A stretch of DNA of 32,000 nucleotides from Edaphobacter aggregans (GTDB lineage: Bacteria > Acidobacteriota > Terriglobia > Terriglobales > Acidobacteriaceae): NCBI RefSeq assembly GCF_003945235.1, contig NZ_RSDW01000001.1, positions 5,370,001-5,402,000 of the forward strand. Direction: 5' to 3'. The position numbers and the translations under genes are program-made. Every line of letters begins with the position of its first letter. Within the stretch, counting starts at the first letter, position 1. The notes below the pieces were generated by a model. The model made no database searches and was not told where the DNA came from. It was given only the letters and a program-made list of their open reading frames with translations. Of this stretch, positions 7,909 through 26,461 are shown piece after piece.

Positions 7909-7933
7909 GGCGGTCTCAACCGGTGGATGCAAC
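7909..7933. repeat. IS30-family terminal inverted repeat (left in window coordinates)
   Basis: Base-by-base comparison with the reverse complement of 9102..9126 gives 24 of 25 identical. It overlaps the transposase stop codon (7916..7918). Confidence 0.9.
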
Positions 7934-9076
7934 GATGGCTTGGAGTTTACTAGCCGGGGTTTCAAAGCCCAAAGTTTTCCGTGGGCGTTGATTGAGGCGC
8001 TGGGCCACTTTGTCCAGATCGGCTTGGGAATAACCGGATAGGTCACTCTTCCTAGGAAAGTACTGTCGCAGCAGACCGTTGGTGTTCTCGTTGGTGCCTC
8101 GCTGCCAAGGGCTTTGTGGATCACAGAAGTAGACGTTCACCTTTGTGGCCACGGTGAAGCTCTTGTGTTTGGCCATCTCCAGCCCCCGGTCCCAGGTCAA
8201 CGAGCGTCTCAGGGACGCGGGGAGTTTACGAACCTGCCGGGTCAACGCGTCGACAACGGTCGCTGTGTCCTTGCTGGGCACTTTGACCAGGATGGTAAAA
8301 CGCGAATGTCGTTCCACCAGGGTTGCGATGTGACTGTTGCCGGGGCCGCTGAGCAGATCTCCCTCCCAATGCCCAGGAATGGCGCGATCTTCAATCTCTG
8401 CGGGCCTTTCGCTGATGGAGATGGCATCGACGATCTGACCTCGAGACTGTCCGCCAGCGCGAGCATGCACTGAGCGGCGGATAAGCTGTTTGGATCGCAG
8501 GTGCTGCATCAGCTCCTTTTTCAGCACTCCTCGAGCCTGGATGAATAAGCTGCGGTAGATCGTCTCGTGGGACACGCGCATGCTCTCGTTGCGGGGATAT
8601 CGTCTCTCCAACCAACCGGAAATCTGCTCCGGCGACCAGTCCAGGATCAGTTTACGGGCCACGATCGTCCCCAGCTTTACATGGGTAGCGAGAAGGCACG
8701 TCTTAGGTCGCAGAGCGGACTTCCAGGCCTGATGATCGGCCTCACTGGCTCGATACACCGGGCGCCCACCGTGACGCGCCACCTCCCGGCTCACCGTCGA
8801 CGCTGCCCGTCGCAACCCTCTCGCTATCTCCCGGATCGATGAACCGGAAGCTATGCCTCGTGAGATGGCTTCCCGCTCGGCCAACGTCAGCGTTCGCTGC
8901 GAACGGCGACGAATGGCTGGAGCTATCCCACCGTGTCGAGATAACAGGAAATGAATCGAGCCATGGTCCTTGTCGAAGACACGACCAATCTCATGCAACG
9001 ACTCTCCAGACTTCCAACGGTGCCAAAGGTCCGCCTTCTGCTCCGCACAAAGACCGTACCGTCTTCCTCGTCTCAT
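7916..9076 (-). CDS. IS30 family transposase
   Basis: N-terminal HTH regions (SLHEIGRVF, SSIREIARGLRRAASTVSREV) precede a DDE core with the IS30 hallmarks PGHWEGDLL, TWDRGLEM and PWQRGTNENTNGLLRQYFPK-like (RQYFPRKSDLS). GGAGGTG lies upstream of ATG 9076; the track start at 9091 is GTG. Confidence 0.93.
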   Translation of the reverse strand: MRRGRRYGLCAEQKADLWHRWKSGESLHEIGRVFDKDHGSIHFLLSRHGGIAPAIRRRSQRTLTLAEREAISRGIASGSSIREIARGLRRAASTVSREVARHGGRPVYRASEADHQAWKSALRPKTCLLATHVKLGTIVARKLILDWSPEQISGWLERRYPRNESMRVSHETIYRSLFIQARGVLKKELMQHLRSKQLIRRSVHARAGGQSRGQIVDAISISERPAEIEDRAIPGHWEGDLLSGPGNSHIATLVERHSRFTILVKVPSKDTATVVDALTRQVRKLPASLRRSLTWDRGLEMAKHKSFTVATKVNVYFCDPQSPWQRGTNENTNGLLRQYFPRKSDLSGYSQADLDKVAQRLNQRPRKTLGFETPASKLQAIVASTG

Positions 9077-9101
9077 GAACATCACCTCCACATCAGATGA
9101 T

Positions 9102-12465: not shown

Positions 12466-13108
12466 TCTCCCGCTTTGCGGGCACTACGGGATAGCTTCCG
12501 GATTGCCTGTAATCCGCTCTCTTGTAAGACAAGCTATAAACGACCGGATTCGAAAGTCTGGCACTCGATAGCGCGACCTTCAGTGTCAGCACCTGGCCAT
12601 CCTTCGACAGCGTAAATTCGTTTTCGCGCCTGCCGTCATCCGACACAAAAACCTGCGTAATCTGATCACCCTCAAACACCTGAGTGAGTGTGCTCCGCTT
12701 GCCGTTATAGACATAGTCAGCAGGCTCTCCCTTATCGCCCGAGATCATCTCAGGTCGCGACTGCGGCCGAACACAGATCTTCCCCGACTCGAACGAGAAC
12801 GAATACGATCCCAGAATCTGCGTCGTCGCCGAGACGCGGCTTCGTGCAGTCGATCGAGTAATAAAAGACAAACCTTCCACTGCATGATCAATCGCCTTGC
12901 TCCGCGCCTCTTCCTCCTGCGCGCTCCCCGCATAACGATACGTCCCGGTAAACCGCGCCCGCTGATCGGCTGACGCCGCAGTCGCCGAAGACTTCGCGGC
13001 GTCGTTCGCCGCTGTCTGTACCTCACCTTCAATACCGACCACGAGAACAGGGCAAAGAAACAGAACGATGACTATCAAATCCCGCCAAGGTTGCATGATC
13101 TTCTCCAT
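12377..13108 (-). CDS. Secreted hypothetical protein
   Basis: 243 aa with an N-terminal hydrophobic segment (WRDLIVIVLFLCPVLVVG) and a beta-rich body (YSFSFESGKICV, QVFVSDDGRRENEFTLSKDGQVLTLKV). The alternative ATG at 13096 is preceded by GGAGAAG. The last ~45 aa look low-quality. Confidence 0.7.
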   Translation of the reverse strand: MEKIMQPWRDLIVIVLFLCPVLVVGIEGEVQTAANDAAKSSATAASADQRARFTGTYRYAGSAQEEEARSKAIDHAVEGLSFITRSTARSRVSATTQILGSYSFSFESGKICVRPQSRPEMISGDKGEPADYVYNGKRSTLTQVFEGDQITQVFVSDDGRRENEFTLSKDGQVLTLKVALSSARLSNPVVYSLSYKRADYRQSGSYPVVPAKREISFALASRQGRSRQVLVLPVCSNLSLRTN

Positions 13109-14539: not shown

Positions 14540-14843
14540 GGTGAGCGAATGATACAGATGCCCCAGACAAACAACCACAGCGCAGAACAGGAGAGCGGCA
14601 CCTTCGACGCGGCAATTGCCGGACGACCGAACGAGTACCACTAGGTTGGAGTCAGAGTAGACAGGCCGCCTCAATGTCAGACGCGCCATGGGTATAACGC
14701 TCAATTTGGTGGAGACGACTGGGAGCCACACCATTTCCTCCGCACGCTTACAAAAGGGAGGGGTCTTCGCGGATAGGGCATCACTTCCGTGTAGAACCGA
14801 CACCGCCCGATTCAGATATCGGGCGTTTTCTTTGGAGGGAGCG

Positions 14844-16382
14844 ATGTTTTTATGTCAGCCTTTACTTGATGTGCTTGCCGGGCGCGGCATTGAGGACATC
14901 GACGCTTTCATTAAGGTGCCGTCATGGAATGACCTTCCCGATCCATTCTCAATTCCGTCGATGGAAAAAGCCACTACCCGCGTCCTTTGCGCTATCCGGA
15001 GACGCGAACGCATCATCATCTTTGGTGACTACGATTGCGATGGAGTCCTGGGAGCCCACATCTTACGCAGCGCGCTAAGCGCTCTGGGAGCGCCGGCCAG
15101 AGTATCTCTGCCTCATCGGGATGAGGGCTACGGGCTGAGTTCTTCAGCAGTCCATCACTTCTCGCGCAGCGGAACGGACTTGCTTATCACTGTCGATAAC
15201 GGCATTAATGCGCGGGCGGCCGTGCGGTTGGCCCAACGCCTCGGGATCGGCGTCGTGGTGATCGATCACCACCGCATCCAGGAGCAGGCAGAGACCACCG
15301 CAGTCTGGTCCGATGGATTCTGCGGAGCGGGCCTGGCCGCGATGTTTGCCTGGGCTCTTGCATTGCGGGCAAAGTGGACCGATACGAAGATTGAGTACCT
15401 ACTATCCGGGTGCAGTCAATATGCAGCAATCGCTTCAATCGCCGATTGCGTACCACTGCTCGATGGCACACGAACTCTGGCCAGGCTGGGTCTCGCCGAA
15501 CTCGCCCGATCGCGCCACAAGGGGCTGCAAGAGTTACTCAAGACCTCTTGCACCGATCCATCCCAACCGGATTCGCGCGACGTGGCATTCGGTGTTGCTC
15601 CGCGGATCAATGCCGCGGGCAGAATGGCCCATCCGGCTGAGGCCCTTGCCGTGTTCGAGGCAGCGATGAACGAAGAGGCCGCACAACGGAGCGTCGAAAG
15701 GCTCAACCAGTTGAACCTGGAGCGCCGGCGTACCGTGAAAGTACATTTTGAAGAGCTTGTCGAGTCGCTCGGAACAAACATTCCAGCTGGCCTGGTAGCT
15801 TATCGCGAGGCCAGCCCGAAAGGGATCGCGGGCCTCCTCGCAAGCAAGTGCGTTGAGAGATACTCGGTTCCCAGCATCGTGCTCGTGCCATCGACCATTC
15901 CCGGTCAAGTCGTTGGATCAGGAAGAAGCGTTCCCGGCGTCGATCTCGTCGAAACTCTGCGGCCGCTTGGGAAACTGTTTCTTCGTTTTGGAGGACATAC
16001 TCAAGCTGTCGGTTTAACTATGGCTGTCGCCCGCATCGAGGAATTCCGGGAGAAGTTCGCTCGGTCAGTGGAACCTCTGGCGAGACGAGATAGTCAGAAA
16101 CCTGATGGCGAAGCTGAACTCAATCTGTCGTTCATGGGGCGCCATTTCGATGAGCAACTGCTTCTGCTCGAGCCGTTTGGAGAAGGGAATCGGCCTCCAA
16201 CATTCTCCATCTGCATGGCCGAAGTCCTGCGTGTCAGAAACAGATGGGTACGGATAAGGCAGGGTAGAAGCAGCCTCGAAGCACTCTGTTGGGATGTTCC
16301 GGTTCGAGAACAGATGAAGGGAGATTTCCTGGTTGAGTTTTACGGCAAAACCCGGATTTTGCGCGGTTTCACCCCTCGATAA
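14844..16382 (+). CDS. recJ: Single-stranded-DNA-specific exonuclease RecJ (DHH/DHHA1 family)
   Basis: The DHH motifs appear in order: IIFGDYDCDG, HRDEGYGL, LITVDNG, VVVIDHH, then the DHHA1 motif FGGHTQAVG and the C-terminal LLEPFGEGNRPP plus an OB-like tail. I chose the ATG at 14844 because GGAGGGA precedes it; the track ORF begins at 14688. Confidence 0.88.
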   Translation: MFLCQPLLDVLAGRGIEDIDAFIKVPSWNDLPDPFSIPSMEKATTRVLCAIRRRERIIIFGDYDCDGVLGAHILRSALSALGAPARVSLPHRDEGYGLSSSAVHHFSRSGTDLLITVDNGINARAAVRLAQRLGIGVVVIDHHRIQEQAETTAVWSDGFCGAGLAAMFAWALALRAKWTDTKIEYLLSGCSQYAAIASIADCVPLLDGTRTLARLGLAELARSRHKGLQELLKTSCTDPSQPDSRDVAFGVAPRINAAGRMAHPAEALAVFEAAMNEEAAQRSVERLNQLNLERRRTVKVHFEELVESLGTNIPAGLVAYREASPKGIAGLLASKCVERYSVPSIVLVPSTIPGQVVGSGRSVPGVDLVETLRPLGKLFLRFGGHTQAVGLTMAVARIEEFREKFARSVEPLARRDSQKPDGEAELNLSFMGRHFDEQLLLLEPFGEGNRPPTFSICMAEVLRVRNRWVRIRQGRSSLEALCWDVPVREQMKGDFLVEFYGKTRILRGFTPR

Positions 16383-16457
16383 GTGCGATTTCCGGGCTGG
16401 TTTGACAGCGCTTCTCTTTCATGGGAAAACAAGCCCACGAGGGGAGAGGAGGGCGAC

Positions 16458-17291
16458 ATGCAGACCCCGGCTACAGAGATCGATCAGATGATTGTTCAGT
16501 TGAACGAATTTATTCTCCCCAGTTCACTGATGGAGAGCTTTGACGTATACCGGGAAGAATCGGTCAAGAGTGCCGCTCGCAGTTTCAATGATGCCCAACT
16601 CTCGTGGTTTTTGGACATGCTGAATCGGTTTCGAGGGTCCGATGACCGCAAAGACTCCCTGGTCGATATCTTTGATCCGGGCATGTACACCTGCGACCAT
16701 CCGGCGTGGGAGGCTGCCCCGGGAACCCGGATCGAGATGCCGGCTTTAACCTCCGAGGTGGCAAGACTCGTAGATCGCAATTCGGAGTTTGCCGAGATCG
16801 CGAGGGAGGAGATCAGAGAGTTCCGCGATCACGCCGAAACCTATGCCGACGACGAGATCCTGGGATTGGCACAGATTGCGGCAGCGGCACTGGTTGACCA
16901 CGGAAGATCTTTCCATGGACGAGAGGAGGCCATTCGATATCTCGCACTCAATGCTAGCGCCGTGCTCGAGGATCTTTGGGCCACGGATGACACACTATGG
17001 AAGAACGCCCCGGCGCGGCAGATCCAGTTCGACGATATGCTCGCAAAGCGCAAGGCGGATCTGCTCAAGCTCGAATCGACTCATCCCAACTTCGAGAAAA
17101 GCGACTTTGCTTGTTATGCTGATAGCGAGATTCGGAGGTTCGCTTTCGACATCCGCAGCCTGTTCCTGACCGGCCACGCCAAGCACCTGGCAATTTGCAC
17201 GCGGTGCCAAGCGCGGTTGGAATCATGGACGAAGCTGGTCGAGAAGTTCGAGCAGAGCGCGTCCATACATAATGGGCGAACTGATGCGTGA
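16458..17291 (+). CDS. Acidic soluble hypothetical protein with a C-terminal zf-HC2 (anti-sigma ZAS-type HxxxCxxC) motif
   Basis: 277 aa from ATG 16458, with the RBS GGAGAGGAGGG upstream. It has no TM segment and is rich in D/E. The C-terminus FACYADSEIRRFAFDIRSLFLTGHAKHLAICTRCQARLESW matches the pattern of anti-sigma N-terminal domains (C...H-x3-C-x2-C) but sits at the opposite end of the protein. Confidence 0.75.
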   Translation: MQTPATEIDQMIVQLNEFILPSSLMESFDVYREESVKSAARSFNDAQLSWFLDMLNRFRGSDDRKDSLVDIFDPGMYTCDHPAWEAAPGTRIEMPALTSEVARLVDRNSEFAEIAREEIREFRDHAETYADDEILGLAQIAAAALVDHGRSFHGREEAIRYLALNASAVLEDLWATDDTLWKNAPARQIQFDDMLAKRKADLLKLESTHPNFEKSDFACYADSEIRRFAFDIRSLFLTGHAKHLAICTRCQARLESWTKLVEKFEQSASIHNGRTDA

Positions 17292-17469: not shown

Positions 17470-20127
17470 ATGAGGGCCCGGATCGCAGTACCTCTCCTGA
17501 CTGCTGGTGCGATTCTGGCAATTTCGCTGAGCTACCATGCTTATCGCGAACGACCGCGACCCGATGATCCTGATTGGCTTTTACAGCGCGCCGATGAACA
17601 GGCGTGGCTAAACCAGTGGATTGACGCGGCTCCTGTCTATCACAGGGCGGAACTTCTCTTTCAGCAGCGGAATGAACCGGCCAGAGCGCTCTATGCGCAA
17701 GTCAGCCAGATGATGGCTACGAGCGAGACGTCCAGCTTTGCGCCGCAGATTGCGTCGCTGAGCGATGATCTCCAACTGCCCGCGGCCCGTGATCCGGAAA
17801 CCCGACTGAGAATTCTTATCATTCGGGGAATGCTCGAGACCAATTACGATGCAGGTCTGGCAACGAAGACCTGGACCGAGGTTGGCGAACTGGCGCGGAA
17901 ACAGAACCACTTCATGCTGGCGTCGAGGGCGATGGGAGAGGAAGGGATCGCAGCCTTTCTTCTTGGCGACGTTGACGGAGCCCAGGCGAAGGTCATGAAG
18001 GCATACCTCGTAGCCAAATACCTGGGCGATCCGGCTGCTAGAGTCAGGTACGCCAGCGTCTACGGCGCCGGGTTGGTCGCGCTCAAGAAATACGATCGCG
18101 CTCTCAAGCCACTTGATGAAGCCATCCGGGTCGCCAACACGACGCCAGGGGTAGCGTATCCAAGCATTGCCACCGCCTCGAAGATTGAGGCACTGGGCGG
18201 CTTGGGCCGTTATCAGGAAGCCCTCATGCTGGCAAATGATGCGATGGCACGGGTCACGGCCCGGCATCTGAACATGCATATCTCCGAGCTCCTCCGCATC
18301 CGTGCCGGCATCTATGAGCGGACCGAGCAGGCGAAGCTTGCTACCGACGACTACCAGGCAGCAATCGATATAGGTAAGAAGGTCTCCGATTGGCGTGGTC
18401 TTTTACAGACCGGCGGCTCGCTGGCCGCGCTCTATGAGAAGCAAGGCAGGCTCGAAGACGCTCTTCGTACCATCGACGATGCAATCGAGGCCAACAAGCA
18501 AATTCCCGATGAACTCTACTTTCTGCCGAGAAACCTCTCGATTAAAGCGCGAATCCTGGCGCGCATGGGAAAGACGGGGGAATCAAACACCCTGTACCAG
18601 AAGAGCGCGGATCTCATCGATTCTTTATTGGCGCACGCTCCCACTGCCAATGTGGAACGCGAGCTGATCACGTCTTTGCAGCAGGTCTATGCCGGCTACT
18701 TCGATTCACTTTGCACACAGAATAAGCTCGCCGAGGCGTTCCGCATCATCGAGAATGCTCGAGGTCGCTTCGAGGCTGAATCCCTTGAACACGTCGAGGC
18801 AGCACCCCCTCGTCCGGCAAGCGAGATCGACCAAAAATTAGTTCGTTTGAATCTCGCTCTCCTGAACACCGACGATCCTGCCAGGCGCGCCATCATTGTC
18901 GATCAAATCGGAGACACGGAAGGACGGTTGCCCTCTGAGTCTTTGGAGGGTAGGACGGCTGTCGATCCGGTGTCTCTGGCGCAGTTACAAGCGGACCTTG
19001 GCCCGAAGCAGATTCTCGTCGAATATGTTCTCGACGATCCTCGGTCCTACGCCCTGGCTATCACTCGTACAGCAGTCAATCGATACTTACTACCGCCGAA
19101 GCAGACGATCGAGCAAGAGGCCAGCGACTACCGATCGAGTGTCATGCAACGAAAGCCTGACGCGGCCACGGGGCAGAGACTGTTTCAACAGTTGCTTGGA
19201 AACATCCCCGAATACAAACGCAACGATGAGGTCATTCTGGTGCCGGATGGCGAGCTACATTTGTTGCCCTTCAGCGCACTAAATGATGGACCACACTATG
19301 CGATCGAATCACATACCCTGGCGGTCAGTCCTTCGGGAACGGTGTTTCACCTTCTGAAAGAGCGGGAACGCGCGCTCGATGCCAAATCTCGTCCGTACGT
19401 GGGTGTGGCGGCCTGGACGCAGGTGAAGCCATCAACCCTGGAACGTATCCTGCGCGGGGTGAATGGTCCAAAGGAGAGCGAATTCGTGCCGCTACCGGAG
19501 AGCAGGGAAGAGGTAGAAACTGCCGGAGCCGATCTGCCTAAGCCAAGCACCATCCTGCTCGGCGCTGATGCAACCGAGACACGGTTCAAGGACTTGCCAC
19601 TTGATCAATATCAAGTGCTGCATCTGGCACTTCACGGGTATGTCGATCCCACCTATCCGGATCGATCTGCATTGGTGTTCGCGCCCGAGAAGAATGGACA
19701 GAACGATGGTTTGCTGCAAGTGCGTGAGATCAGGCGAATGCGGCTCAATGCCAGCCTGGTTACGCTCTCGGCCTGCGATACCGGCGTTGGCCCCGCGGGT
19801 GCGGCAGGCATCAACAACCTCGTGACGGCATTTATCGACGGGGGCGCTCGCAGCGTCGTGTCAACCTTGTGGGAACTCGAAGATCATTCCACAACCCGGT
19901 TGATGACGAACTTCTATGCCAACCTGAAAACTGAGAGCAAAGCGCAGGCGCTCCGCGATGCGCAGCTCGAACTGCTCAGGGCAGGCTTCGGTCCATACTA
20001 CTGGGCCAGCTTCGAACTGGTCGGCGATCCCGACAACCTGGTCTTTGCGGGATCGAACCCTCCTTCCTCCTCACACGTTGCGCAGGGGCAAGTCATGCTT
20101 CAACAAACCGGTAGGCGGCCATTATGA
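17470..20127 (+). CDS. TPR-repeat CHAT-domain (caspase-like) protease with an N-terminal hydrophobic anchor or signal
   Basis: 885 aa. The N-terminus is MRARIAVPLLTAGAILAISLSYHA, followed by a long helical-repeat region and a C-terminal CHAT domain. The His is in VLHLALHGYV (codon 19633..19635) and the Cys in LVTLSACDTGVG (codon 19774..19776). The protein ends with YYWASFELVGDP, typical of CHAT. Confidence 0.9.
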   Translation: MRARIAVPLLTAGAILAISLSYHAYRERPRPDDPDWLLQRADEQAWLNQWIDAAPVYHRAELLFQQRNEPARALYAQVSQMMATSETSSFAPQIASLSDDLQLPAARDPETRLRILIIRGMLETNYDAGLATKTWTEVGELARKQNHFMLASRAMGEEGIAAFLLGDVDGAQAKVMKAYLVAKYLGDPAARVRYASVYGAGLVALKKYDRALKPLDEAIRVANTTPGVAYPSIATASKIEALGGLGRYQEALMLANDAMARVTARHLNMHISELLRIRAGIYERTEQAKLATDDYQAAIDIGKKVSDWRGLLQTGGSLAALYEKQGRLEDALRTIDDAIEANKQIPDELYFLPRNLSIKARILARMGKTGESNTLYQKSADLIDSLLAHAPTANVERELITSLQQVYAGYFDSLCTQNKLAEAFRIIENARGRFEAESLEHVEAAPPRPASEIDQKLVRLNLALLNTDDPARRAIIVDQIGDTEGRLPSESLEGRTAVDPVSLAQLQADLGPKQILVEYVLDDPRSYALAITRTAVNRYLLPPKQTIEQEASDYRSSVMQRKPDAATGQRLFQQLLGNIPEYKRNDEVILVPDGELHLLPFSALNDGPHYAIESHTLAVSPSGTVFHLLKERERALDAKSRPYVGVAAWTQVKPSTLERILRGVNGPKESEFVPLPESREEVETAGADLPKPSTILLGADATETRFKDLPLDQYQVLHLALHGYVDPTYPDRSALVFAPEKNGQNDGLLQVREIRRMRLNASLVTLSACDTGVGPAGAAGINNLVTAFIDGGARSVVSTLWELEDHSTTRLMTNFYANLKTESKAQALRDAQLELLRAGFGPYYWASFELVGDPDNLVFAGSNPPSSSHVAQGQVMLQQTGRRPL

Positions 20128-21392
20128 CGAACACGCTGGATCTCAAAGCTGAGCAGAGAGATGCAATTCTCAACCGCACACTGAAGGTCCTGGACCAACG
20201 GTTCTATCAACCGGAAAAGCTAGGCAATGGATGGAAGGACGCGATCGCGCGCAATCGACCGGCGATTATTGGCGCGTCAACAACGGCTGCTTTCGAAGAA
20301 GCCATCACGCGATTGCTCGAGGAATTAAAGACCTCACACGTCGGATTCTTTCACGGATCGGCAAGGCGAGCCTCAAGTAGAGCTGCTCTTAGCGCTACCT
20401 ACCTCGCGGACGACACTGATGAAGGTCGTCGCTGGATATTCCAGGATGTACACCCGGGAGGTGCAGCGTCGCTGGCTGCAATCGAGCCGGGCGACATTCT
20501 GTTACGTGTCGGAGCGGAGGAGATCATTCCTCCAACGCACCCCACTTTCCCAATGGGGGAAACGACAGAACTCACCGTCCTGACCGCCGACGGCAAAGAG
20601 CGTACCAGGAGCGTCACGGTCGCTCGGCCCAAAGGCAAGAAACTGCACTACGTCGAACCAAAGCTTGTTGTCGGCAATCGCCTGCAAGACGGCATTGGCT
20701 ACCTGAAGGTGGCCATGTTCCCAGGAATGGTGGGCGTAGAAGTTGCCAATGAGATATCGAGCCAGGTGGAGCAGTTGGGCAATGTCGAACGCCTGATTAT
20801 CGATCTTCGCGGGAACACAGGTGGAGGGATCGGAGCATTGCGCGTGATGAGTCTATTGACTCCCAGGCGGATACCAGTCGGCTTCGCGCTCGACAGAAAG
20901 TCTGCGCAACGAAACATTGCCGACGCAAAGAACAGCTTCCCGCGCTTTGACAGGATTCCAGCCTCGAAGAAGGGGCTTTGGCTCCTCGCGCTGCGCTATG
21001 CACCCATGCTGGTGAAGAAGTCTCCCATCGTCCTTGAGACCGAAGGGCTGGGAGCCAAGCCTTTCCATGGAAGAATCGTTCTCCTGGTGGACCGGCACAC
21101 GGCCAGCGCTGCTGAAATGATTGTTGCCTTCGCTCGGGAAAACTCGCTCGCCACGATCGTCGGGGAAAAGACGGCGGGTCGGCTTCTTTCCGCCACTTCC
21201 GCAAAGGTCGGGCATGGCTACCGCTTAGCCTTTCCTACGGGGGCGTACTACACCTGGAAAGGGTCAGTTCTCGAAGGCACTCCGATCGAGCCGGACCAAA
21301 GCGTTGCTTTCGATTGGCGTGAAGCACGACGTGGCAACGACCTGCAACTGAAACATTCCATTGAACTCCTCGAGAAGGTACTGACTCGATAA
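20124..21392 (+). CDS. PDZ-containing S41 family peptidase (C-terminal processing peptidase-like)
   Basis: 422 aa. The ATG overlaps the CHAT stop (ATGA at 20124..20127). It has a PDZ-like segment GGAASLAAIEPGDILLRVGAEEI and the S41 core motifs LIIDLRGNTGGG and LLVDRHTASAAEMIVAF (Ser codon 21105..21107). No signal peptide is evident. Confidence 0.88.
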   Translation: MTNTLDLKAEQRDAILNRTLKVLDQRFYQPEKLGNGWKDAIARNRPAIIGASTTAAFEEAITRLLEELKTSHVGFFHGSARRASSRAALSATYLADDTDEGRRWIFQDVHPGGAASLAAIEPGDILLRVGAEEIIPPTHPTFPMGETTELTVLTADGKERTRSVTVARPKGKKLHYVEPKLVVGNRLQDGIGYLKVAMFPGMVGVEVANEISSQVEQLGNVERLIIDLRGNTGGGIGALRVMSLLTPRRIPVGFALDRKSAQRNIADAKNSFPRFDRIPASKKGLWLLALRYAPMLVKKSPIVLETEGLGAKPFHGRIVLLVDRHTASAAEMIVAFARENSLATIVGEKTAGRLLSATSAKVGHGYRLAFPTGAYYTWKGSVLEGTPIEPDQSVAFDWREARRGNDLQLKHSIELLEKVLTR

Positions 21393-21492: not shown

Positions 21493-21975
21493 ATGAGTAT
21501 GGCTACGATCGCTCGCAAAACCGTTGCGCAGTTTGTTCCGTCCTCGAGCATCGCCAAGGCTGCGCGAATCCAGCCAGGAAGAAGCCTAGGACTCAAGCGC
21601 ATGGAGCTCCCCACCTTGCTCAAGGTGATTACCTCGGGTCTGCGCTGGTCTGCGGTGGAAAGCTTTCTGCAGGAATCGGGCTTTACGCAGCTGCAACTCG
21701 CACAGTACCTCGGTATTCCTGTTCGGACTCTGGCCAGGCGCAAAGAAGCAGGTGGACTGGACGAAAATGAGTCTGAACGCCTGCTCCGACTGTCAGAAAT
21801 TTACGATGCAGCCCTTGATCTTTTCGCTGGGGATAAAGCTGATGCGCGTGAATGGCTGCTTTCACCTGTGCGCGGTCTGAATAATTCCCGACCAATTGAC
21901 TATGCTCGTACTGACTACGGGGCACGAGAAGTTCGGAATCTGATTGGCCGGCTCGAGCACGGGGTTTTCTCTTGA
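21493..21975 (+). CDS. Xre-family / DUF2384 antitoxin (MbcA/ParS-like)
   Basis: 160 aa with an HTH (FTQLQLAQYLGIPVRTLARRKEAG) and a C-terminal DUF2384 pattern (SERLLRLSEIYDAALDLFAGDKADAREWLLSPVRGLNNSRPIDYARTDYGAREVRNLIGRLEHGVF). It overlaps the RES gene by 4 nt. Confidence 0.88.
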   Translation: MSMATIARKTVAQFVPSSSIAKAARIQPGRSLGLKRMELPTLLKVITSGLRWSAVESFLQESGFTQLQLAQYLGIPVRTLARRKEAGGLDENESERLLRLSEIYDAALDLFAGDKADAREWLLSPVRGLNNSRPIDYARTDYGAREVRNLIGRLEHGVFS

Positions 21976-22430
21976 TCGAAGCCTGGCGCATTGACCGAAA
22001 AATCTATCGGGCGACAGCGTTTACCGGCGAAGGTGCAAGAGTCTATGGAGGTCGATGGAATAGCCAGGGTGTTTCCGTGGTCTATACCGCTGAGCACCGA
22101 TCACTGGCAATGCTTGAGATCCTTGTCCATCTAAGAAGGCCCAGGGACTATGAACTCTATTCGGTCAAATTCGACGAATCTCTGGTCCAGGAACTTGCAG
22201 CCCGCAACCTTCCTCGAAACTGGGACGTCGAACCTCCTACAGGTGACACTCAGGAAATAGGAGACAACTGGGTGATGGGCGCATCGTCCGCTGTCTTATC
22301 CGTTCCAAGTGCCGTTGTGCCGGAGGAACGAAATTACATCCTTAACCCACGGCATCCTGATTTCAAGCACATCAAGATCGACGGGCCGTTTCCTTGTTAT
22401 TTCGATCCGCGCCTGCTTGGAGAAAAATAG
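21972..22430 (+). CDS. RES-domain toxin (NAD+-targeting MbcT/ParT-like)
   Basis: 152 aa with a TTG start that overlaps the antitoxin stop (cTTGA at 21971..21975). The R/E/S landmarks are GARVYGGRWNSQG, SLAMLEILVH and AVLSVPSAVVPEERNYILNPRHPDF. Confidence 0.88.
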   Translation: MIEAWRIDRKIYRATAFTGEGARVYGGRWNSQGVSVVYTAEHRSLAMLEILVHLRRPRDYELYSVKFDESLVQELAARNLPRNWDVEPPTGDTQEIGDNWVMGASSAVLSVPSAVVPEERNYILNPRHPDFKHIKIDGPFPCYFDPRLLGEK

Positions 22431-22475
22431 CAGCCTGATGCAAATCTAATCATATTCTTATCGCCGGAGAACCAC

Positions 22476-24197
22476 GTGAAGGTTTTGTCCCGTACTCAAA
22501 TGTTGATTGCCCTCCTCCTTGCAACAACGGCCGCACAGGCCGCCGGCAAGGCAAAACCTCCGGATTTCGGCCCGAACGTCGAGGTCTTCTCGCCTGCGAC
22601 CCCAGCAGCCGAGATTCAAGCTCAGATCGACAAGGTGTACGCCGTCCAGCAGCACAACCAGTTCGGCAGCGAGCGCAACGCCTTCCTTTTTCTCCCCGGC
22701 GAATATAAGGTTGACGTTCCCATCGGCTTCTACACCGAGGTCCTGGGCCTCGGAGCCACGCCCGATGCGACGCACATCACCGGCAACGTCCGCTCCGAGG
22801 CGGCTGGCCGCAACGACAACGCCACGACTACCTTCTGGAAGGCAATCGGGGGACTCTCCGTCACCCCGGCCGGCGGCGAGATGCTTTGGGCCGTCTCGCA
22901 GGCGGTCTCGTTCCGCCGTATGCATATCCGGGGCGACATCGTCCTCAACCAGAACAAGGGCTGGGCGAGCGGTGGCTGGATGTCTGACTCCGTCATCGAC
23001 GGCAGGGTCAACTCCGGAACCCAGCAGCAGTGGATCTCCCGCAACAGCGAGTGGGGAAGCTGGACCGGCCATAACTGGAACATGGTCTTCGTCGGTGTCC
23101 CGCAGGCTCCCGCGGGCGAGTGGCCCGACCCTCCTTTCACCGGGATCGAGAAGACTCCGGTCATCCGCGAAAAGCCCTTCATCACCATTGATGCGAAGGG
23201 CAACTATGGCGTCCGCGTTCCCGATCTTGCGAAGAAGAGCGCGGGTGCCACCTGGCACGCCGGCGCGACAGCCGGCAAGACCATCCCCCTCGCGAAGTTC
23301 TACATCGCGAAGCCCGGCGACTCCGCCGCTATCATCAATGCTCAGCTTGCGAAGGGAATGCACCTGCTGCTCACGCCCGGCATCTACGAGCTGTCCTCAC
23401 CCATCGAGGTCACCCGGCCCAATACGATCGTGATGGGTCTCGGCTTCGCGACCCTCAAGCCCGTCCACGGCACGGCCGCGATGAAGGTTGCCGATGTCGA
23501 CGGCGTCACCGTCGAAGGCCTTCTCTTCGACGCGGCCGAGACCGAATCTCCGGTGCTCCTCGAAGCCGGGCCTGAGGGGAGCAAGGCCCGTCACTCCGGC
23601 AACCCGACATTGCTCGCCGACGTCTTCTTCCGTGTCGGCGGCGCGGGAATCGGCAGAGCGAAGGTGAGCCTCGCCATCAACTCCAACGATGTCCTCGTCG
23701 ACCACACCTGGATCTGGCGTGCCGACCATGGCACAGGCGTCGGCTGGGAGAACAACACCGCGGCCAACGGCATGGTTGTTGCTGGCAATGACGTCACCGC
23801 GTACGGTCTCTTTGTGGAGCACTACCAGGAGTTTCAGGTTCTTTGGAAGGGCAACGGGGGGCGCACCTACTTCTACCAGTCCGAGATCCCTTACGATCCT
23901 CCCACGCAGGCCAAATTCACCAGCGCGCCGAATGTGAATGGATGGGCCTCCTACAAGGTCGCCAAAAACGTCACCAGCCACGAGGCCTTTGGGCTGGGCG
24001 TCTACAGCGTCTTTCGCCATCCGGACGTCAGGCTCACCCGGGCTATCGAGGTTCCCAGCACTCCGGGCGTGCGCTTCCACCACATGATCACGGTCGCGCT
24101 GGGAAATCTCGGCGCAATCGACAACGTCATTAACAACACCGGCGGAGCGACGCAGATGAAGCCGCGCGTTACACCGACGGTGACTAGCTATCCATAA
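22476..24197 (+). CDS. Secreted right-handed beta-helix (pectin-lyase-fold) protein, putative glycoside hydrolase
   Basis: 573 aa with a GTG start after GGAGA and a signal peptide (MLIALLLATTAAQAAG). It has repeated beta-helix-like turns and conserved-looking blocks (WAVSQAVSFRRMHI, DHTWIWRADHG, LFVEHYQEFQVLWKGNGGRTYFYQSEIPYD). The CDS is confident; the precise family is not. Confidence 0.8.
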   Translation: MKVLSRTQMLIALLLATTAAQAAGKAKPPDFGPNVEVFSPATPAAEIQAQIDKVYAVQQHNQFGSERNAFLFLPGEYKVDVPIGFYTEVLGLGATPDATHITGNVRSEAAGRNDNATTTFWKAIGGLSVTPAGGEMLWAVSQAVSFRRMHIRGDIVLNQNKGWASGGWMSDSVIDGRVNSGTQQQWISRNSEWGSWTGHNWNMVFVGVPQAPAGEWPDPPFTGIEKTPVIREKPFITIDAKGNYGVRVPDLAKKSAGATWHAGATAGKTIPLAKFYIAKPGDSAAIINAQLAKGMHLLLTPGIYELSSPIEVTRPNTIVMGLGFATLKPVHGTAAMKVADVDGVTVEGLLFDAAETESPVLLEAGPEGSKARHSGNPTLLADVFFRVGGAGIGRAKVSLAINSNDVLVDHTWIWRADHGTGVGWENNTAANGMVVAGNDVTAYGLFVEHYQEFQVLWKGNGGRTYFYQSEIPYDPPTQAKFTSAPNVNGWASYKVAKNVTSHEAFGLGVYSVFRHPDVRLTRAIEVPSTPGVRFHHMITVALGNLGAIDNVINNTGGATQMKPRVTPTVTSYP

Positions 24198-24217: not shown

Positions 24218-24910
24218 TTATTCGATTTGAAGAGGATAGGTGTAAGGAGCGTCTTCGCCCTGGAGTTGAGTCGACAAGGTGTAATTACCTGGTGCCGCAC
24301 TTCTCAGATCGAGAGACACCGTGACCACGGTTCGCGGATCGGCACCCACCGCCGACCCGGTTGCGCAGGCTACGCGATTAAGCCCGTTCTTGGCGGGCGC
24401 AACCATGATGGAGTAAACGCCGGGTTGGCTCAGACGAGGCAGGACAAGTTCCAGCCTTACGAGCGCGGCGGGAAGATGGAGTGGAGGATTGCTCTTTGGC
24501 TCGCCACCGCGGTAGGTTCCATACTGCGAAAGGTCCAGGGTACGATGAACTTCGGCCGACTGCACCTGGACTACTGCCGGATGTCTACGGTTCCAGGCAT
24601 TGGCAAGAACGAACCCTACCAACAAACAGGCCAACCCCGTCGCCGCCACAGTCGCGTAGCGAAACCTCGGAGATGTTCCTGCCGGACGAGTTGCGCGGAA
24701 CTGAAGCAGCCGCCCCAGGCAGTAGTTGCAGGATGTGACATGATCGACACGCGGATCGGAGAGCGAGACGTCCATGGGACGTGCTGCATAGGATTTCAGA
24801 AAGGCATCGTCCACACACTCCGGGGTCTTATCTCCACTCGGCTGCCTGCGGGCATAGGATTCAACCTGTCTGAGGAACCATTCTTCAGAGTTCAATTTTT
24901 TCTTGATCAC
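24218..24910 (-). CDS. Anti-sigma factor (zf-HC2/ZAS N-terminal domain, one TM helix, extracytoplasmic C-terminal domain)
   Basis: It has an HxxxCxxC motif (DHVTSCNYCLGRLL) and a single TM helix (YATVAATGLACLLVGFVLANAW), and lies directly downstream of the sigma gene. The start is uncertain: GTG 24910, TTG 24895 or the track ATG 24964. These overlap the sigma stop by 26, 11 or 80 nt respectively. Confidence 0.75.
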   Translation of the reverse strand: MIKKKLNSEEWFLRQVESYARRQPSGDKTPECVDDAFLKSYAARPMDVSLSDPRVDHVTSCNYCLGRLLQFRATRPAGTSPRFRYATVAATGLACLLVGFVLANAWNRRHPAVVQVQSAEVHRTLDLSQYGTYRGGEPKSNPPLHLPAALVRLELVLPRLSQPGVYSIMVAPAKNGLNRVACATGSAVGADPRTVVTVSLDLRSAAPGNYTLSTQLQGEDAPYTYPLQIE

Positions 24911-25484
24911 TATCCTCTCGCTCTTCAGAGCTAGACCTATCAGAAGAGGGGACCAAAAGTCCACGAAGCTCCTTGTGATAGGCCCGCCGAACTGTGGCGT
25001 GACTGGATTCCAAAGCGTCCGCGATCTGGCGCCAGCTATGCCCCGCGAGACGCCAATAAGTAATCTTCCTCGCGCGTTCGCTCATCCGGCCCAGCATCTG
25101 CTCGATGTACGCCGTCTGCTCTGATTCAGATTGTGAGGAAAATGCAGCAGCCAGTATCTCGAGATCGAAGATGGATCCACAATATATCTCGCGATTGTTC
25201 CGGACGCGTTGTTTGGAGAGCCTTTTCAGAACACTCACGATTCTGTAAAAGAGCTGGGTGGTGGTTCGCTCGCCCTGGAAGCGTTCGTAATATCGTTCCG
25301 TATTCGAAACTGCTGCGTCCATCAGGTCGTACGCCGCGTGAATATCGTGCAGATAGCGAGTGGCGCAATAAAGAGCGTACGGCCAGGTTAAAACGCATAG
25401 TCGACGAAACAACTCGTCCATGGCCGGATTCGGGGAGCCCAGATACCAGTACTTACTGGAGGGGAGAGGCAGCCTTGAGTCCAT
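24885..25484 (-). CDS. ECF-type RNA polymerase sigma-70 family factor
   Basis: The region-4 HTH is MSERARKITYWRLAGHSWRQIADALESSHATVRRAYHKELRGL, and the region-2-like part is YALYCATRYLHDIHAAYDLMDAAV. The start is at ATG 25484 or 25421. The first ~70 codons of the track ORF look non-coding. Confidence 0.78.
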   Translation of the reverse strand: MDSRLPLPSSKYWYLGSPNPAMDELFRRLCVLTWPYALYCATRYLHDIHAAYDLMDAAVSNTERYYERFQGERTTTQLFYRIVSVLKRLSKQRVRNNREIYCGSIFDLEILAAAFSSQSESEQTAYIEQMLGRMSERARKITYWRLAGHSWRQIADALESSHATVRRAYHKELRGLLVPSSDRSSSEEREDSDQEKIEL

Positions 25485-25774
25485 TGAGAGCCCTCTGCGA
25501 CGGAATAAACAGCTCAGCAGGTCACAGCAATATGTCACTGGATTGTAACGCTGACTGAGACTTATCGAATCGCCGAACAATGAAATTATTCTTGGCGCAA
25601 ATGATCCAAACGCTATCGAGAAATGCCTTATATCAGTAAGGGACGAACAGGCGACGCCAGCGTCCCTGCCTTCCCCTCGAGCTTTCACTGGCATCACAAG
25701 AAATACGTAGAAAAATCTCTATACCCCTCTTCTTTTCTGCCTCGTTGTGTGTATATGGAAGACTGAGGTGCGGT

Positions 25775-26461
25775 ATGGCTACAAAGAATATGCCTCCCGG
25801 GAAACCCAGAAGGTATCTCTGGCCCGCGGAGGCGGTGAACATCGCGCAGAAGAAACGACATCCGGTTCGGCTATGTGAAGAACTGATGGCACTGACCGGT
25901 TACGACAAAGCTGCTTGCTGGCGATTCTTGAAGAAACATGGTGTGGAGCGACCCGGGTCCGGGTCCAGGCGAACGTTCGATCCGACTACCGTCGAATCGA
26001 TCATGGAATATGTATCGGAGCATGGTGTACGGGCTGCGTCCCAACGTTTCCACTGTGAAGCCAAGACGCTATACAACTTGATCCATCGCCGCGGCTACGC
26101 GCACTACGGCAAAGATATATTCAGTTTGCGCCAGATCTGCGCACATTTCTGTGTCCGATACAGCAAGGTTATAAGTTGGATCGAGCAGGGGCTGCTCAAG
26201 GCAAAGCGCGAGCAAACGCGCACGGGACGACCTATCTATTCGATAGAGTTTGAGGCTCTGCAGAAGTTCTGCAAGGAACACCGGAACCTTTTGATTACAC
26301 GTCGCTGGCCACCCCAGCGGATCCGGTTCCTGGAGGAGTACGTGTTTGCTCCGAAGCATGCGGAATTGCTGCGGACCCGCGAAAGCAAGCGTGAGAATAG
26401 TGCGTTTGATCGTGGTGAATACTTAGACCCCGATGATGAAGACCTTCAGCGCAGGGCCTGA
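25775..26461 (+). CDS. Hypothetical DNA-binding protein with three HTH-like modules
   Basis: ATG 25775 follows GAGGTG. There are three helix-turn-helix-like segments: LCEELMALTGYDKAACWRFLKKHGV, GVRAASQRFHCEAKTLYNLIHRRG and FSLRQICAHFCVRYSKVISWIEQGLLKA (MerR/excisionase-like). The tail is acidic. Confidence 0.68.
   Translation: MATKNMPPGKPRRYLWPAEAVNIAQKKRHPVRLCEELMALTGYDKAACWRFLKKHGVERPGSGSRRTFDPTTVESIMEYVSEHGVRAASQRFHCEAKTLYNLIHRRGYAHYGKDIFSLRQICAHFCVRYSKVISWIEQGLLKAKREQTRTGRPIYSIEFEALQKFCKEHRNLLITRRWPPQRIRFLEEYVFAPKHAELLRTRESKRENSAFDRGEYLDPDDEDLQRRA

Follow-up and report, generated by a model that had tools for sequence, protein, structure and literature searches.

A TPR-CHAT protease and a PDZ-S41 peptidase belong to a conserved mobile four-gene module with a sigma-like factor and a membrane-spanning anti-sigma factor

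What do two proteases act on when their genes overlap and their products face opposite sides of the membrane? The question is raised by a 32,000-nucleotide stretch of Edaphobacter aggregans DNA (the window; contig NZ_RSDW01000001.1, positions 5,370,001 to 5,402,000), in which a gene for a TPR-CHAT protease runs into one for a PDZ-S41 peptidase (Table 1). Comparison across loci revealed that these two genes are one half of a conserved, mobile four-gene module, the other half of which encodes a sigma-like factor and a membrane-spanning anti-sigma factor.

Table 1. Features of the CHAT–S41 locus in window coordinates
Feature	Position	Strand	Basis
Gene for the 885-aa TPR-CHAT protease (signal-anchor at the N-terminus, TPR-like helical repeats over about 450 aa, CHAT at the C-terminus)	17470..20127	+	ORF; Pfam; AF2
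Basic and hydrophobic N-terminal segment, residues 1-25, export signal or membrane anchor	17470..17544	+	In all homologues
CHAT (caspase-like) domain, residues 567-853	19168..20028	+	Full-length Pfam match
CHAT catalytic His722 (CAC)	19633..19635	+	
CHAT catalytic Cys769 (TGC)	19774..19776	+	
ATGA stop/start overlap of CHAT and S41 genes, translational coupling	20124..20127	+	4 nt; same -4 overlap in most type-A loci
Gene for the 422-aa PDZ-S41 peptidase (helical, C1-like domain at the N-terminus, PDZ at about residues 96-178, S41 core 191-393), predicted cytoplasmic	20124..21392	+	Pfam; profiles
S41 candidate partner residue His72	20337..20339	+	Conservation
S41 nucleophile Ser328 (HTASAAE)	21105..21107	+	Aligns with CtpA Ser
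Arg353 at the S41 Lys position	21180..21182	+	Alignment to CtpA
S41 candidate partner residue Glu384	21273..21275	+	Conservation
Cargo, not core, between CHAT-S41 and the sigma pair	21493..24197	+	Presence across loci
Xre/ParS-type antitoxin	21493..21975	+	Pfam Xre_MbcA_ParS_C
RES toxin	21972..22430	+	Pfam RES
573-aa Cys-free protein, family unassigned	22476..24197	+	
Anti-sigma-like gene, up to 248 aa, start uncertain (N-terminal zinc motif, a single TM helix, a conserved domain of about 120 aa at the C-terminus)	24218..24964	-	Homologues
TM helix of the anti-sigma-like protein, residues 103-124	24593..24658	-	
Divergent ECF-like sigma gene; probable start M72 = 25484, longest ORF to 25697; 3' end overlaps anti-sigma ORF	24885..25484	-	Profiles
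Degenerate copy TAAGGCA-N13-TTTGG of conserved element, putative promoter or operator	25601..25632	-	Upstream of sigma
Accessory 238-aa protein, HTH-like repeats, divergent from sigma	25745..26461	+	Homologues at same position

The CHAT domain matches nearly every position of its Pfam model (3-289 of 289, E=5.5e-58), a TPR_12 match lies at residues 275-343, and in the AF2 model residues 34-485 form helical repeats. The catalytic His and Cys are invariant among 17 homologues with identity down to 53%; both the anchored TPR-CHAT reading frame and the intact dyad proposed in a preliminary description of the pair are borne out. The best PDB fold matches of the model are to DdvA (8rw5, E=2.8e-11; 8rot), then Csx29 and separase; Csx29, the third-best fold match, also gives a weak NCBIfam match (E=2e-7). 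The N-terminus is basic and then hydrophobic, and its best 19-aa Kyte-Doolittle window averages 2.17 across 105 homologues. In the clade to which the window belongs, the K+R counts around this anchor argue for the reverse topology, whereas divergent homologues possess a cleavable signal peptide (L069) or a clear N-in/C-out anchor (the type-B proteins described below and L051). No hydrophobic N-terminal segment or export signal was found in the S41 proteins of any clade. Because divergent CHAT homologues carry clear export signals and the S41 proteins never do, the compartment mismatch suspected from the window alone is real, and it is conserved.

The S41 protein, whose homologues are labelled 'carboxyl-terminal processing protease CtpA/Prc' in their sources, matches Peptidase_S41 at residues 191-393 (E=8e-26). 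The PDZ domain assigned to it earlier falls below threshold in the window protein itself (E=0.04) and is significant in homologues, in which PDZ_6 and Tricorn_C1 exceed the cut-off, and in profile matches to the PDZ domains of RseP and DegP. Ser328 aligns with the residue that distinguishes CtpA chain 7rpq from the chain deposited as the S302A mutant (7rqh), and Arg353 occupies the position of the Lys in CtpA, D1P and an Acinetobacter S41 enzyme; the Ser motif and the missing Lys had thus been read correctly. Among 51 family members Ser328 is conserved in 48, Glu384 in 47 and His72 in 41, the last lying in a low-confidence part of the model and being a candidate general base only. We considered and rejected the reading of this protein as a defective CtpA/Prc enzyme, since position 353 varies family-wide (R, E, Q, N, T or K). 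Judged from sequence, its conserved residues and the domain order C1-PDZ-core indicate a Ser-His(-Glu) catalytic type like that of tricorn, CPAF and NSR.

With the tricorn core, CPAF and NSR the S41 protein shares the order of C1-like, PDZ and S41 core domains, a TASAAEM-type Ser motif and the absence of the Lys, and like tricorn it is predicted to be cytoplasmic. A profile match covering residues 952-1055 of tricorn takes in Ser965 and Glu1023, with offsets that fit Ser328 and Glu384, and His72 is the putative counterpart of tricorn His746. In contrast to tricorn, the S41 protein has no beta-propeller domains, and its best PDB sequence match is the non-enzymatic IRBP. Two S41 enzymes paired with TPR proteins, CtpA-LbcA and Prc-NlpI, rank among the top fold matches of its model, and CtpB is also among the fold and profile matches.

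Association was counted over the 39 loci in which S41 is intact and each flank extends for 4 kb or more. A CHAT gene is present in 36 of these, in 33 cases no more than 100 nt away, so the adjacency seen in the window is conserved. Homologues of the anti-sigma-like gene occur in 34 and of the sigma-like gene in 33, and the full four-gene set was found in 30; it is this pair, 2.8 kb downstream of CHAT-S41 on the opposite strand, that overturns the earlier statement that no substrate or effector is recognisable. In three loci sigma, anti-sigma and S41 are present and CHAT is absent within 10 kb, and in five CHAT-S41 loci the anti-sigma gene is absent within 10 kb. Over all 80 loci, anti-sigma-like homologues were found in 57. 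The data support the CHAT-S41 pair as a conserved functional unit and not as two housekeeping proteases.

The same gene set occurs in two arrangements. In type A (CHAT>S41> … <anti-σ<σ) most loci repeat the 4-nt overlap recorded in the window, and in type B (σ>anti-σ>S41> <CHAT) the S41 start lies about 0-45 nt after the anti-sigma stop codon, which makes S41 part of the sigma/anti-sigma operon and leaves CHAT as a separate, convergent gene. Pairwise identities of the four families co-vary (r = 0.80-0.96, 24 loci). Several genomes hold more than one copy, the copies being divergent; flanks differ between loci, one copy is plasmid-borne, and some lie on elements encoding a conjugation-type (VirB4/TrbE-like) ATPase. 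The module is best read as a self-contained, horizontally mobile signalling unit, apparently an undescribed version of a familiar type.

The sigma-like protein matches the NCBIfam sigma70-ECF model over positions 3-158 of 165 at E=1.3e-9, below the curated cut-off, and its profile is collinear with SigL, SigE and SigH. Sigma70_r4_2 (region 4) was detected in 14 of 18 members, and region 2 was not recognised by Pfam. The anti-sigma-like protein gave no Pfam or PDB sequence match, and its N-domain matches no zf-HC2 Pfam model. Near its N-terminus it carries the zinc motif C50-x24-H75-x3-C79-x2-C82, of which H75, C79 and C82 are present in 53/53 sequences and C50 in 47/53. The single TM helix has a basic RRR flank on its N side, a conserved A-x-A-A stretch and an Ala-rich inner half.

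Since the other half of the module is a sigma factor with its anti-sigma factor, the two proteases most likely release the former by cleaving the latter from both sides of the membrane, a reading that we hold with moderate confidence. We infer who cuts whom, the order of the cuts and the signal, and the substrate is assigned from gene co-occurrence and analogy. The core proteins would be a divergent ECF-like sigma factor, a single-pass anti-sigma factor whose zinc domain is cytoplasmic and whose small second domain is periplasmic, a TPR-CHAT cysteine protease anchored in the membrane and facing the periplasm, and a cytoplasmic PDZ-S41 serine peptidase; of these only the anti-sigma-like protein spans both membrane sides. 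First, CHAT would be activated by a periplasmic cue, which either the TPR array or the periplasmic domain of the anti-sigma factor would detect. Second, CHAT would make a site-1 cut on the periplasmic side of the anti-sigma factor, the invariant Arg152-Gly153, 28 residues past the membrane, being the candidate site. Third, a housekeeping RseP-type site-2 protease, which would be encoded elsewhere (the module contains no gene for one), would cut the TM helix inside its inner, Ala-rich half, which we take to resemble the site-2 region of RseA that yields a VAA C-terminus. Finally, the Lys-less S41 peptidase would use its PDZ domain to bind the nonpolar C-terminus created by that cut and would degrade the zinc domain, releasing the sigma factor.

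The closest parallel is DdvA of Myxococcus, an anti-sigma factor with a fused periplasmic TPR-CHAT region. In both systems a CHCC-type zinc motif lies on the cytoplasmic side ahead of a single TM helix, the periplasmic TPR-CHAT carries a His-Cys dyad, and an ECF-type sigma factor is found next to them. The CHAT domain of DdvA was proposed by its authors to act as the site-1 protease, followed by RseP, and the cytoplasmic fragment was found to be unstable (PMC11506125). The module resembles DdvA/DdvS with substrate and protease separated, each with its own TM segment, and with what would be a dedicated cytoplasmic finishing protease, the S41 peptidase, as an extra core component. Its anti-sigma factor moreover has a small periplasmic domain of its own, its CHAT covers the whole Pfam model whereas that of DdvA is reported to lack three helices (PMC11506125), no CBASS or CRISPR regulon is evident for it, and its hosts belong to Acidobacteriota and a small number of further phyla instead of Myxococcota. 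The Craspase module of type III-E CRISPR (Cas7-11, the TPR-CHAT protein Csx29, Csx30, Csx31 and CASP-sigma) likewise links a TPR-CHAT protease to an ECF-like sigma factor and its inhibitor; there, cleavage of Csx30 by Csx29 relieves the inhibition of CASP-sigma, and the fragment is suspected to be degraded further (PMC10028731). In contrast to Craspase, the module has no CRISPR effector or RNA trigger and has an S41 enzyme, its CHAT protein is exported whereas Csx29 is cytoplasmic, and its anti-sigma factor is a ZAS transmembrane protein, which Csx30 is not.

Known cases of regulated intramembrane proteolysis include DegS, RseP and ClpXP acting on RseA, and SpoIVB with the S41 enzyme CtpB in sigma-K activation. 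In such systems, as in the proposed scheme, either a single-pass anti-sigma factor or a protein that regulates the site-2 protease is cut in successive steps, and S41 PDZ-proteases take part. The S41 enzymes known from such systems are of the Ser/Lys type and are periplasmic or intermembrane, whereas that of the module is cytoplasmic and without the Lys; in addition, the site-1 enzyme proposed here is a caspase-like cysteine protease, and the proteases are encoded inside the sigma module. In Pseudomonas, Prc (S41) and RseP act on cell-surface-signalling anti-sigma factors, and Prc is required for their cleavage (PMC10392083). A further likeness is with the actinobacterial ECF54 group, for which carboxypeptidase, subtilase and CHAT-domain proteins are described in the gene neighbourhood and proteolytic control is proposed (PMC8999054; PMC7826278). 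ECF54 lacks an anti-sigma factor, whereas a ZAS-motif anti-sigma factor is core to the module, and S41 is not among the peptidase types given in the relevant portions of these sources.

Alternatively, the sigma pair could be the regulator only, with CHAT and S41 as stress-induced output proteases for other substrates (envelope, misfolded or invader proteins), which we consider unlikely. ECF sigma genes usually adjoin their targets, S41 enzymes of the cytoplasmic tricorn type degrade peptides in general, and the type-B S41 gene belongs to the operon of sigma, for which autoregulation would be expected. However, the element CTAAAGGCA-N14-TTGGGGCA conserved upstream of the sigma genes, nearly all matches to which in the loci lie just 5' of a sigma gene, is distinct from the conserved sigma70-like promoter (TTGAyC, 17 nt, CAnnAT) of the type-A CHAT-S41 operons, and no common motif was found between CHAT and sigma upstream regions, type B included. 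The membrane-spanning anti-sigma factor is, furthermore, the only obvious common substrate of proteases in opposite compartments, and DdvA, the nearest structural relative, is itself an anti-sigma factor.

It is quite improbable that CHAT and S41 instead form one complex in one compartment, the TPR array being an adaptor that activates S41 as in LbcA-CtpA and NlpI-Prc. Overlaps of 4 nt are typical for subunit genes of one complex, those very pairs are among the S41 fold matches, both proteins are Cys-poor, and the K+R counts noted above permit a cytoplasmic CHAT bulk; against this stand the unambiguous Sec-type signals of divergent CHAT homologues, the cognate S41 proteins without any, and the type-B loci, in which the S41 gene is coupled to that of the anti-sigma factor and not to CHAT. 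We give as little credence to a conflict or defence system in which the two proteases stand alone, in the manner of Craspase or the gasdermin systems, with the sigma pair incidental. CHAT proteases do act in type III-E CRISPR, and the module is multi-copy, mobile and in some loci adjoined by defence genes: Qat (L009), PDC-M04A (L072) and, in the window, RES-Xre. But no PADLOC defence model matches either protease, no gasdermin, CRISPR or nuclease partner is conserved across loci, the sole conserved partners being the sigma and anti-sigma genes, and the gaps between the module halves are locus-specific and often hold genes unconnected with defence (RND or MacB transporters and ArsR regulators, for example). 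The preliminary description had left defence and envelope signalling side by side, with a target not obviously encoded; envelope signalling fits better than stand-alone defence, and the lack of an obvious target is not borne out. That the two are ordinary envelope housekeeping proteases, adjacent by chance, is suggested by the source names of the S41 homologues and is very improbable given several divergent copies per genome with variable flanks, one on a plasmid, an S41 without signal peptide or catalytic Lys, and the tight linkage to the sigma pair.

The cargo between the halves occurs only in the window and in L004, and a close relative (L005) has the four genes contiguous. Homologues of the accessory protein, for which Pfam gave no match, are encoded in the same place, divergently from sigma, in 13 loci, the window counted.

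The CHAT and S41 protease genes form one half of a four-gene module, the remaining two genes being sigma-like and anti-sigma-like. A scan for the S41 peptidase with one genome per species returned 77 loci, most of them from Acidobacteriaceae (Edaphobacter, Acidipila, Terracidiphilus and Tunturibacter), with more than one copy in several genomes and a single copy on a Tunturiibacter plasmid; a few loci came from MAGs assigned to Phycisphaerae, Bryobacterales, Verrucomicrobiia and Proteobacteria, assignments that mis-binning could explain. Iterated profiles were used to count partners within 10 kb of S41, over 39 intact S41 genes flanked on each side by 4 kb or more of sequence. CHAT lies near S41 in 36 of these 39 loci (33 of them within 100 nt), an anti-sigma-like gene in 34 and a sigma-like gene in 33, and the complete set of four is present in 30. 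The adjacency of the two protease genes, on which the preliminary description had built, is therefore conserved. Two S41 homologues that have CHAT upstream with a 4-nt overlap lie in wholly different flanks, one with a mer operon and RND pump and one with a helicase and ECF sigma gene.

Coordinates of module genes, associated elements and neighbouring features (window positions unless a retrieved S41 locus, L number, is named)
Feature	Position	Strand	Remarks
Transposase, HTH_38 + rve integrase-core	7916..9091	-	IS30-like by reading; consistent with a mobile/island context
RecJ-like DHH/DHHA1 protein (564 aa), then 302-aa protein	14688..17291	+	No intergenic gap; just upstream of CHAT
TPR-CHAT ORF	17470..20127	+	885 aa
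CHAT catalytic codons	His722 19633..19635; Cys769 19774..19776	+	Codons verified
ATGA stop/start overlap, 4 nt	20124..20127	+	Joins CHAT and S41 ORFs
PDZ-S41 ORF	20124..21392	+	422 aa
Xre/MbcA/ParS-type antitoxin + RES-domain toxin	21493..22430	+	4-nt overlap; inserted after S41
573-aa Cys-free protein	22476..24197	+	Signal-peptide-like N-terminus; L004 copy 92% identical
Anti-sigma-like ORF	24218..24964	-	248 aa; homologues in 57/80 loci
Sigma-like ORF	24885..25697	-	Homologues in at least 28/80 loci; probable start M72 (25484)
Degenerate copy TAAGGCA-N13-TTTGG	about 25601..25632	-	Upstream of sigma
238-aa protein, three HTH-like repeats	25745..26461	+	Divergent from sigma; 13 loci including the window
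Qat system in S41/anti-sigma gap	L009 11578..16317	+	QatA E=1e-101; QatC, QatD on short partial ORFs
VirB4/TrbE-like type IV secretion ATPase	L016 4812..7184	-	1.5-3 kb upstream of sigma

Two gene orders account for most loci. Type A (23 of the 39, window included) reads CHAT>S41> … <anti-sigma<sigma, and type B (8 of the 39) reads sigma>anti-sigma>S41> <CHAT; the remaining eight comprise five CHAT-S41 pairs that lack an anti-sigma-like gene in range, and three loci where S41 and the anti-sigma-like gene occur with no CHAT within 10 kb. In type A, S41 shares a 4-nt overlap with CHAT; in type B it begins about 0-45 nt past the anti-sigma stop codon. S41 is thus linked now to one partner, now to the other. 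Across 24 loci the four families co-vary in pairwise identity (r = 0.80-0.96), and the co-variation of CHAT with the anti-sigma-like protein (0.954) is as tight as that of CHAT with S41 (0.958). No fusion joining the anti-sigma-like family to CHAT or S41 was found among 390 retrieved proteins, where the CHAT/S41 junction is bridged by a single short fragment (P0325, 176 aa). The PLSDB plasmid collection gave no match and the IMG/VR viral collection a single weak one (24% identity).

Sigma70_r4_2, the region 4 helix-turn-helix, was detected in 14 of 18 sigma-like members (best E=4e-7), and Pfam Sigma70_r2 (region 2) matched none of the 18. The sigma-like protein aligned with the NCBIfam sigma70-ECF model TIGR02937 over positions 3-158 of 165 (E=1.3e-9), its 37.9 bits falling under the cut-off of 42.9, and the family profile aligns collinearly with SigL, SigE and SigH (E about 1e-4). 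The adjoining anti-sigma-like gene, whose ORF overlaps that of the sigma-like gene, encodes a predicted CHCC-type zinc anti-sigma signature, C-x24-H-x3-C-x2-C, in which H75, C79 and C82 are present in 53 of 53 sequences and C50 in 47 of 53. A basic RRR flank and a single TM helix (residues 103-124) follow, the inner half of the helix bearing an A-x-A-A(A/S) stretch in 40 of the 53, and the C-terminus is a conserved domain of about 120 aa with weak matches to Pfam families that we take to be beta-sandwich domains. Because zf-HC2 matched none of 18 members at E up to 1 and the family had no PDB match by single sequence or profile, the putative anti-sigma assignment rests on motif, topology and gene position. 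That both proteins are divergent enough for curated models to miss was less expected, and the family is therefore probably absent from ECF censuses. ECF54 was considered as a known group for the module and rejected, being actinobacterial and without an anti-sigma factor.

Several conserved elements lie upstream of the module genes. The element CTAAAGGCA-N14-TTGGGGCA is kept upstream of sigma genes in distant loci (for example 12686..12712, minus strand, in L011), was not found elsewhere outside coding sequence, and could be a promoter or operator; the degenerate TAAGGCA-N13-TTTGG is its copy in the window. A conserved sigma70-like promoter (TTGAyC, 17 nt, CAnnAT) is located about 30 nt upstream of CHAT in type-A loci, L009, L032 and L038 among them, and was not found in that form in the window or in L005. 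In type-B loci L016, L019 and L045, where CHAT is convergent, a conserved palindrome, ACACAAAnnTGTGT, some 40 nt ahead of the CHAT start looks like an operator. A generic promoter/terminator scan gave results at chance level. These elements bear on the possibility that CHAT and S41 are outputs under sigma control, a reading that is weakened because the type-A CHAT-S41 pair has its own conserved sigma70-like promoter and because no ECF-type promoter or other motif common to the CHAT and sigma upstream regions was found; we think it rather unlikely. We favour instead proteases that act on the anti-sigma.

The CHAT protein is a predicted cysteine protease with its catalytic dyad in place. Pfam places the CHAT domain (PF12770, caspase-like clan CD) at residues 567-853 (E=5.5e-58, 197 bits against a cut-off of 24, model positions 3-289 of 289) and finds TPR repeats in the same protein, and the dyad, H722 (HLALHG) and C769 (LSACDTG), is invariant in 17 homologues down to 53% identity. 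The AlphaFold model (pLDDT 70) has helical repeats at residues 34-485. Its best PDB matches in Foldseek are DdvA, a Myxococcus anti-sigma factor with a fused periplasmic TPR-CHAT region (8rw5, E=2.8e-11, and 8rot), followed by Csx29 and separase, and the 8rw5 and 8rot alignments span 916-963 columns. PDB searches with the CHAT, anti-sigma and sigma single sequences returned TPR or noise matches only.

Peptidase_S41 covers residues 191-393 of the second protease (Pfam, E=8e-26). Ser328, at the place of the Ser nucleophile that CtpA/Prc enzymes have in a G-S-A-S-A-x-E context, aligns with the CtpA residue that differs between chains 7rpq and the deposited S302A mutant, and is kept in 48 of 51 family members. 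At the position of the catalytic Lys of CtpA (T-F-G-K-G) the window protein has Arg353, and the family has R in 29 members, E in 10, Q in 3, N in 3, T in 2 and K in 2. Other conserved residues are His72 (41 of 51), Glu384 (47 of 51), Asp227, Arg229 and Glu331. A PDZ_6 domain precedes the S41 core, scoring over the cut-off in homologue P0033 and under it in the window protein, and the family profile also matches the PDZ domains of RseP and DegP. Tricorn_C1 scored above cut-off alongside PDZ and S41 in homologues P0015 and P0033, and the profile match to tricorn covers its Ser965 and Glu1023 stretch with offsets consistent with Ser328 and Glu384 of the window protein; the beta-propeller domains of tricorn protease proper were not found in the 422 residues. 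Tricorn-type enzymes have their catalytic His in or after C1 and a Glu about 58 residues past the Ser, and the protein is best read as a Ser-His(-Glu) type enzyme in which His72, from a stretch (residues 70-111) that is poorly modelled, is a candidate for the His. All NCBIfam Ctp/Prc models scored far under their cut-offs, and membership of CtpA/Prc (S41A) was dropped because the protein has neither the Lys nor an export signal. The ORFs, the ATGA overlap, the His/Cys codons and the Arg-for-Lys replacement reported in the preliminary description all held up in ORF, codon, Pfam and CtpA alignment checks.

The same description had pointed to a compartment mismatch between the two proteases, and this is real and conserved. 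Only 2-10 residues lie ahead of the TM segment of the CHAT protein, and around this anchor in 105 close homologues the positive-inside rule gives contradictory answers, C-in by K+R counts and N-in by net charge. Divergent homologues settle the prediction: the L069 CHAT has a classic cleavable signal peptide, the L067 CHAT a signal peptide and then acidic residues, and in the type-B proteins and L051 a basic flank precedes the TM segment and an uncharged or acidic one follows it. From these export signals the TPR-CHAT bulk is predicted to be periplasmic, as in DdvA. The S41 proteins have no hydrophobic N-terminus in any clade (maximum 15-aa Kyte-Doolittle mean <=1.15), the partner of the L069 CHAT included. 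A complex of CHAT and S41 within one compartment would suit the CtpA-LbcA and Prc-NlpI fold matches of S41 but conflicts with export signals on the one protein and none on the other, and we regard it as very improbable. By predicted topology, the anti-sigma alone extends to both sides of the membrane.

We propose that the two proteases act from opposite sides on the anti-sigma, in a regulated-proteolysis relay of three cuts. Periplasmic CHAT would first cleave the anti-sigma outside the membrane, for which the invariant Arg152-Gly153, 28 residues beyond the TM helix, is a candidate site; a housekeeping RseP-type protease would then cut in the Ala-rich inner half of the helix; and cytoplasmic PDZ-S41 would bind the new nonpolar C-terminus and remove the zinc domain, freeing sigma. 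S41 tail-specific proteases prefer nonpolar C-termini, and RseA cut by RseP ends in VAA. A cytoplasmic Lys-less PDZ-S41 inside a sigma/anti-sigma module was less expected, and by analogy it may play the part that ClpXP has in the sigma-E pathway. A CHAT-then-RseP route has been proposed for DdvA, whose cytoplasmic fragment is unstable (PMC11506125), cleavage of Csx30 by Csx29 relieves inhibition of CASP-sigma (PMC10028731), and S41 proteases are involved in anti-sigma processing (PMC10392083).

The module is like DdvA in the periplasmic TPR-CHAT architecture of its CHAT protein, with homologues that carry export signals, and in the sigma-like gene nearby (33/39 loci), comparable to the adjacent cognate ECF sigma gene. 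It differs in that the zinc motif belongs to a protein of its own, whereas in DdvA the ZAS is fused N-terminally to TPR-CHAT. The DdvA authors report such fused proteins from Myxococcota and one Comamonas only (PMC11506125). In the open-access literature we found no paper on a CHAT domain together with an S41 or tail-specific protease. That a periplasmic CHAT domain can serve as the site-1 protease for an anti-sigma was proposed in the DdvA structure paper but could not be tested there, since one chain holds both protease and substrate and the signal is not known (PMC11506125). In the present module the putative protease and its putative substrate have separate genes, which makes trans-cleavage testable.

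In type A, S41 and the anti-sigma gene are up to 7.8 kb apart and at the other extreme overlap by 24 nt. No recurrent gene family was found in the gap and its contents differ per locus: a Qat system (L009), GajB-like fragments (L031, L036), a PADLOC candidate system (L072) and the RES-Xre pair (window), as well as HNH, a weak HEPN match, DUF5677, RND and MacB transporters and ArsR-type regulators. In the close relative L005 the four genes adjoin one another; an insertion made up of the Xre/ParS-RES pair and the 573-aa gene, whose product matches nothing in Pfam or NCBIfam, parts S41 from the anti-sigma gene in the window and L004 only. Several cargo genes follow the anti-sigma gene directly and in the same orientation. 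The module might thus be a mobile protease-gated sigma switch over cargo between or beside its halves, a speculative reading to which we attach little confidence. If true, it would be an envelope-triggered regulator of variable defence/accessory islands, comparable to DdvA and its sigma factor DdvS over CBASS and CRISPR, and conjugative elements would spread it through Acidobacteriota. That CHAT-S41 is a stand-alone defence system, one of the options first raised for the pair, is highly unlikely, since PADLOC-DB v2 models matched neither protease (nor the 302-aa neighbour, Xre or RES), no effector is conserved and the gap contents are locus-specific.

In one type-B subgroup a VirB4/TrbE-like ATPase gene accompanies the module, in L016 and also in L017-L019, L042, L044, L045, L053, L059 and L076, plasmid copy NZ_CP132928 included, which indicates that a conjugative element carries it. 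The module, abundant and multi-copy among soil Acidobacteriaceae, travels on plasmids and conjugative elements and for that reason may matter for envelope-threat sensing in these bacteria. The 238-aa HTH-like protein, which has no Pfam match, may be a fifth, accessory regulator of the module. The RecJ-like/302-aa pair is kept in L004 and L005, and in L051 and L058 at 41-43% identity.

Two further observations concern copy number and composition. On contig JBMGJV010000016.1 two module copies (L046 and L063) are about 17 kb apart. Both proteases are strongly depleted in Cys: the CHAT proteins average 0.22% Cys and the S41 proteins have 0-2 Cys; window proteins taken as cytoplasmic (RecJ-like, the 302-aa ORF and a HEAT-repeat protein) have 1.2-2% Cys.
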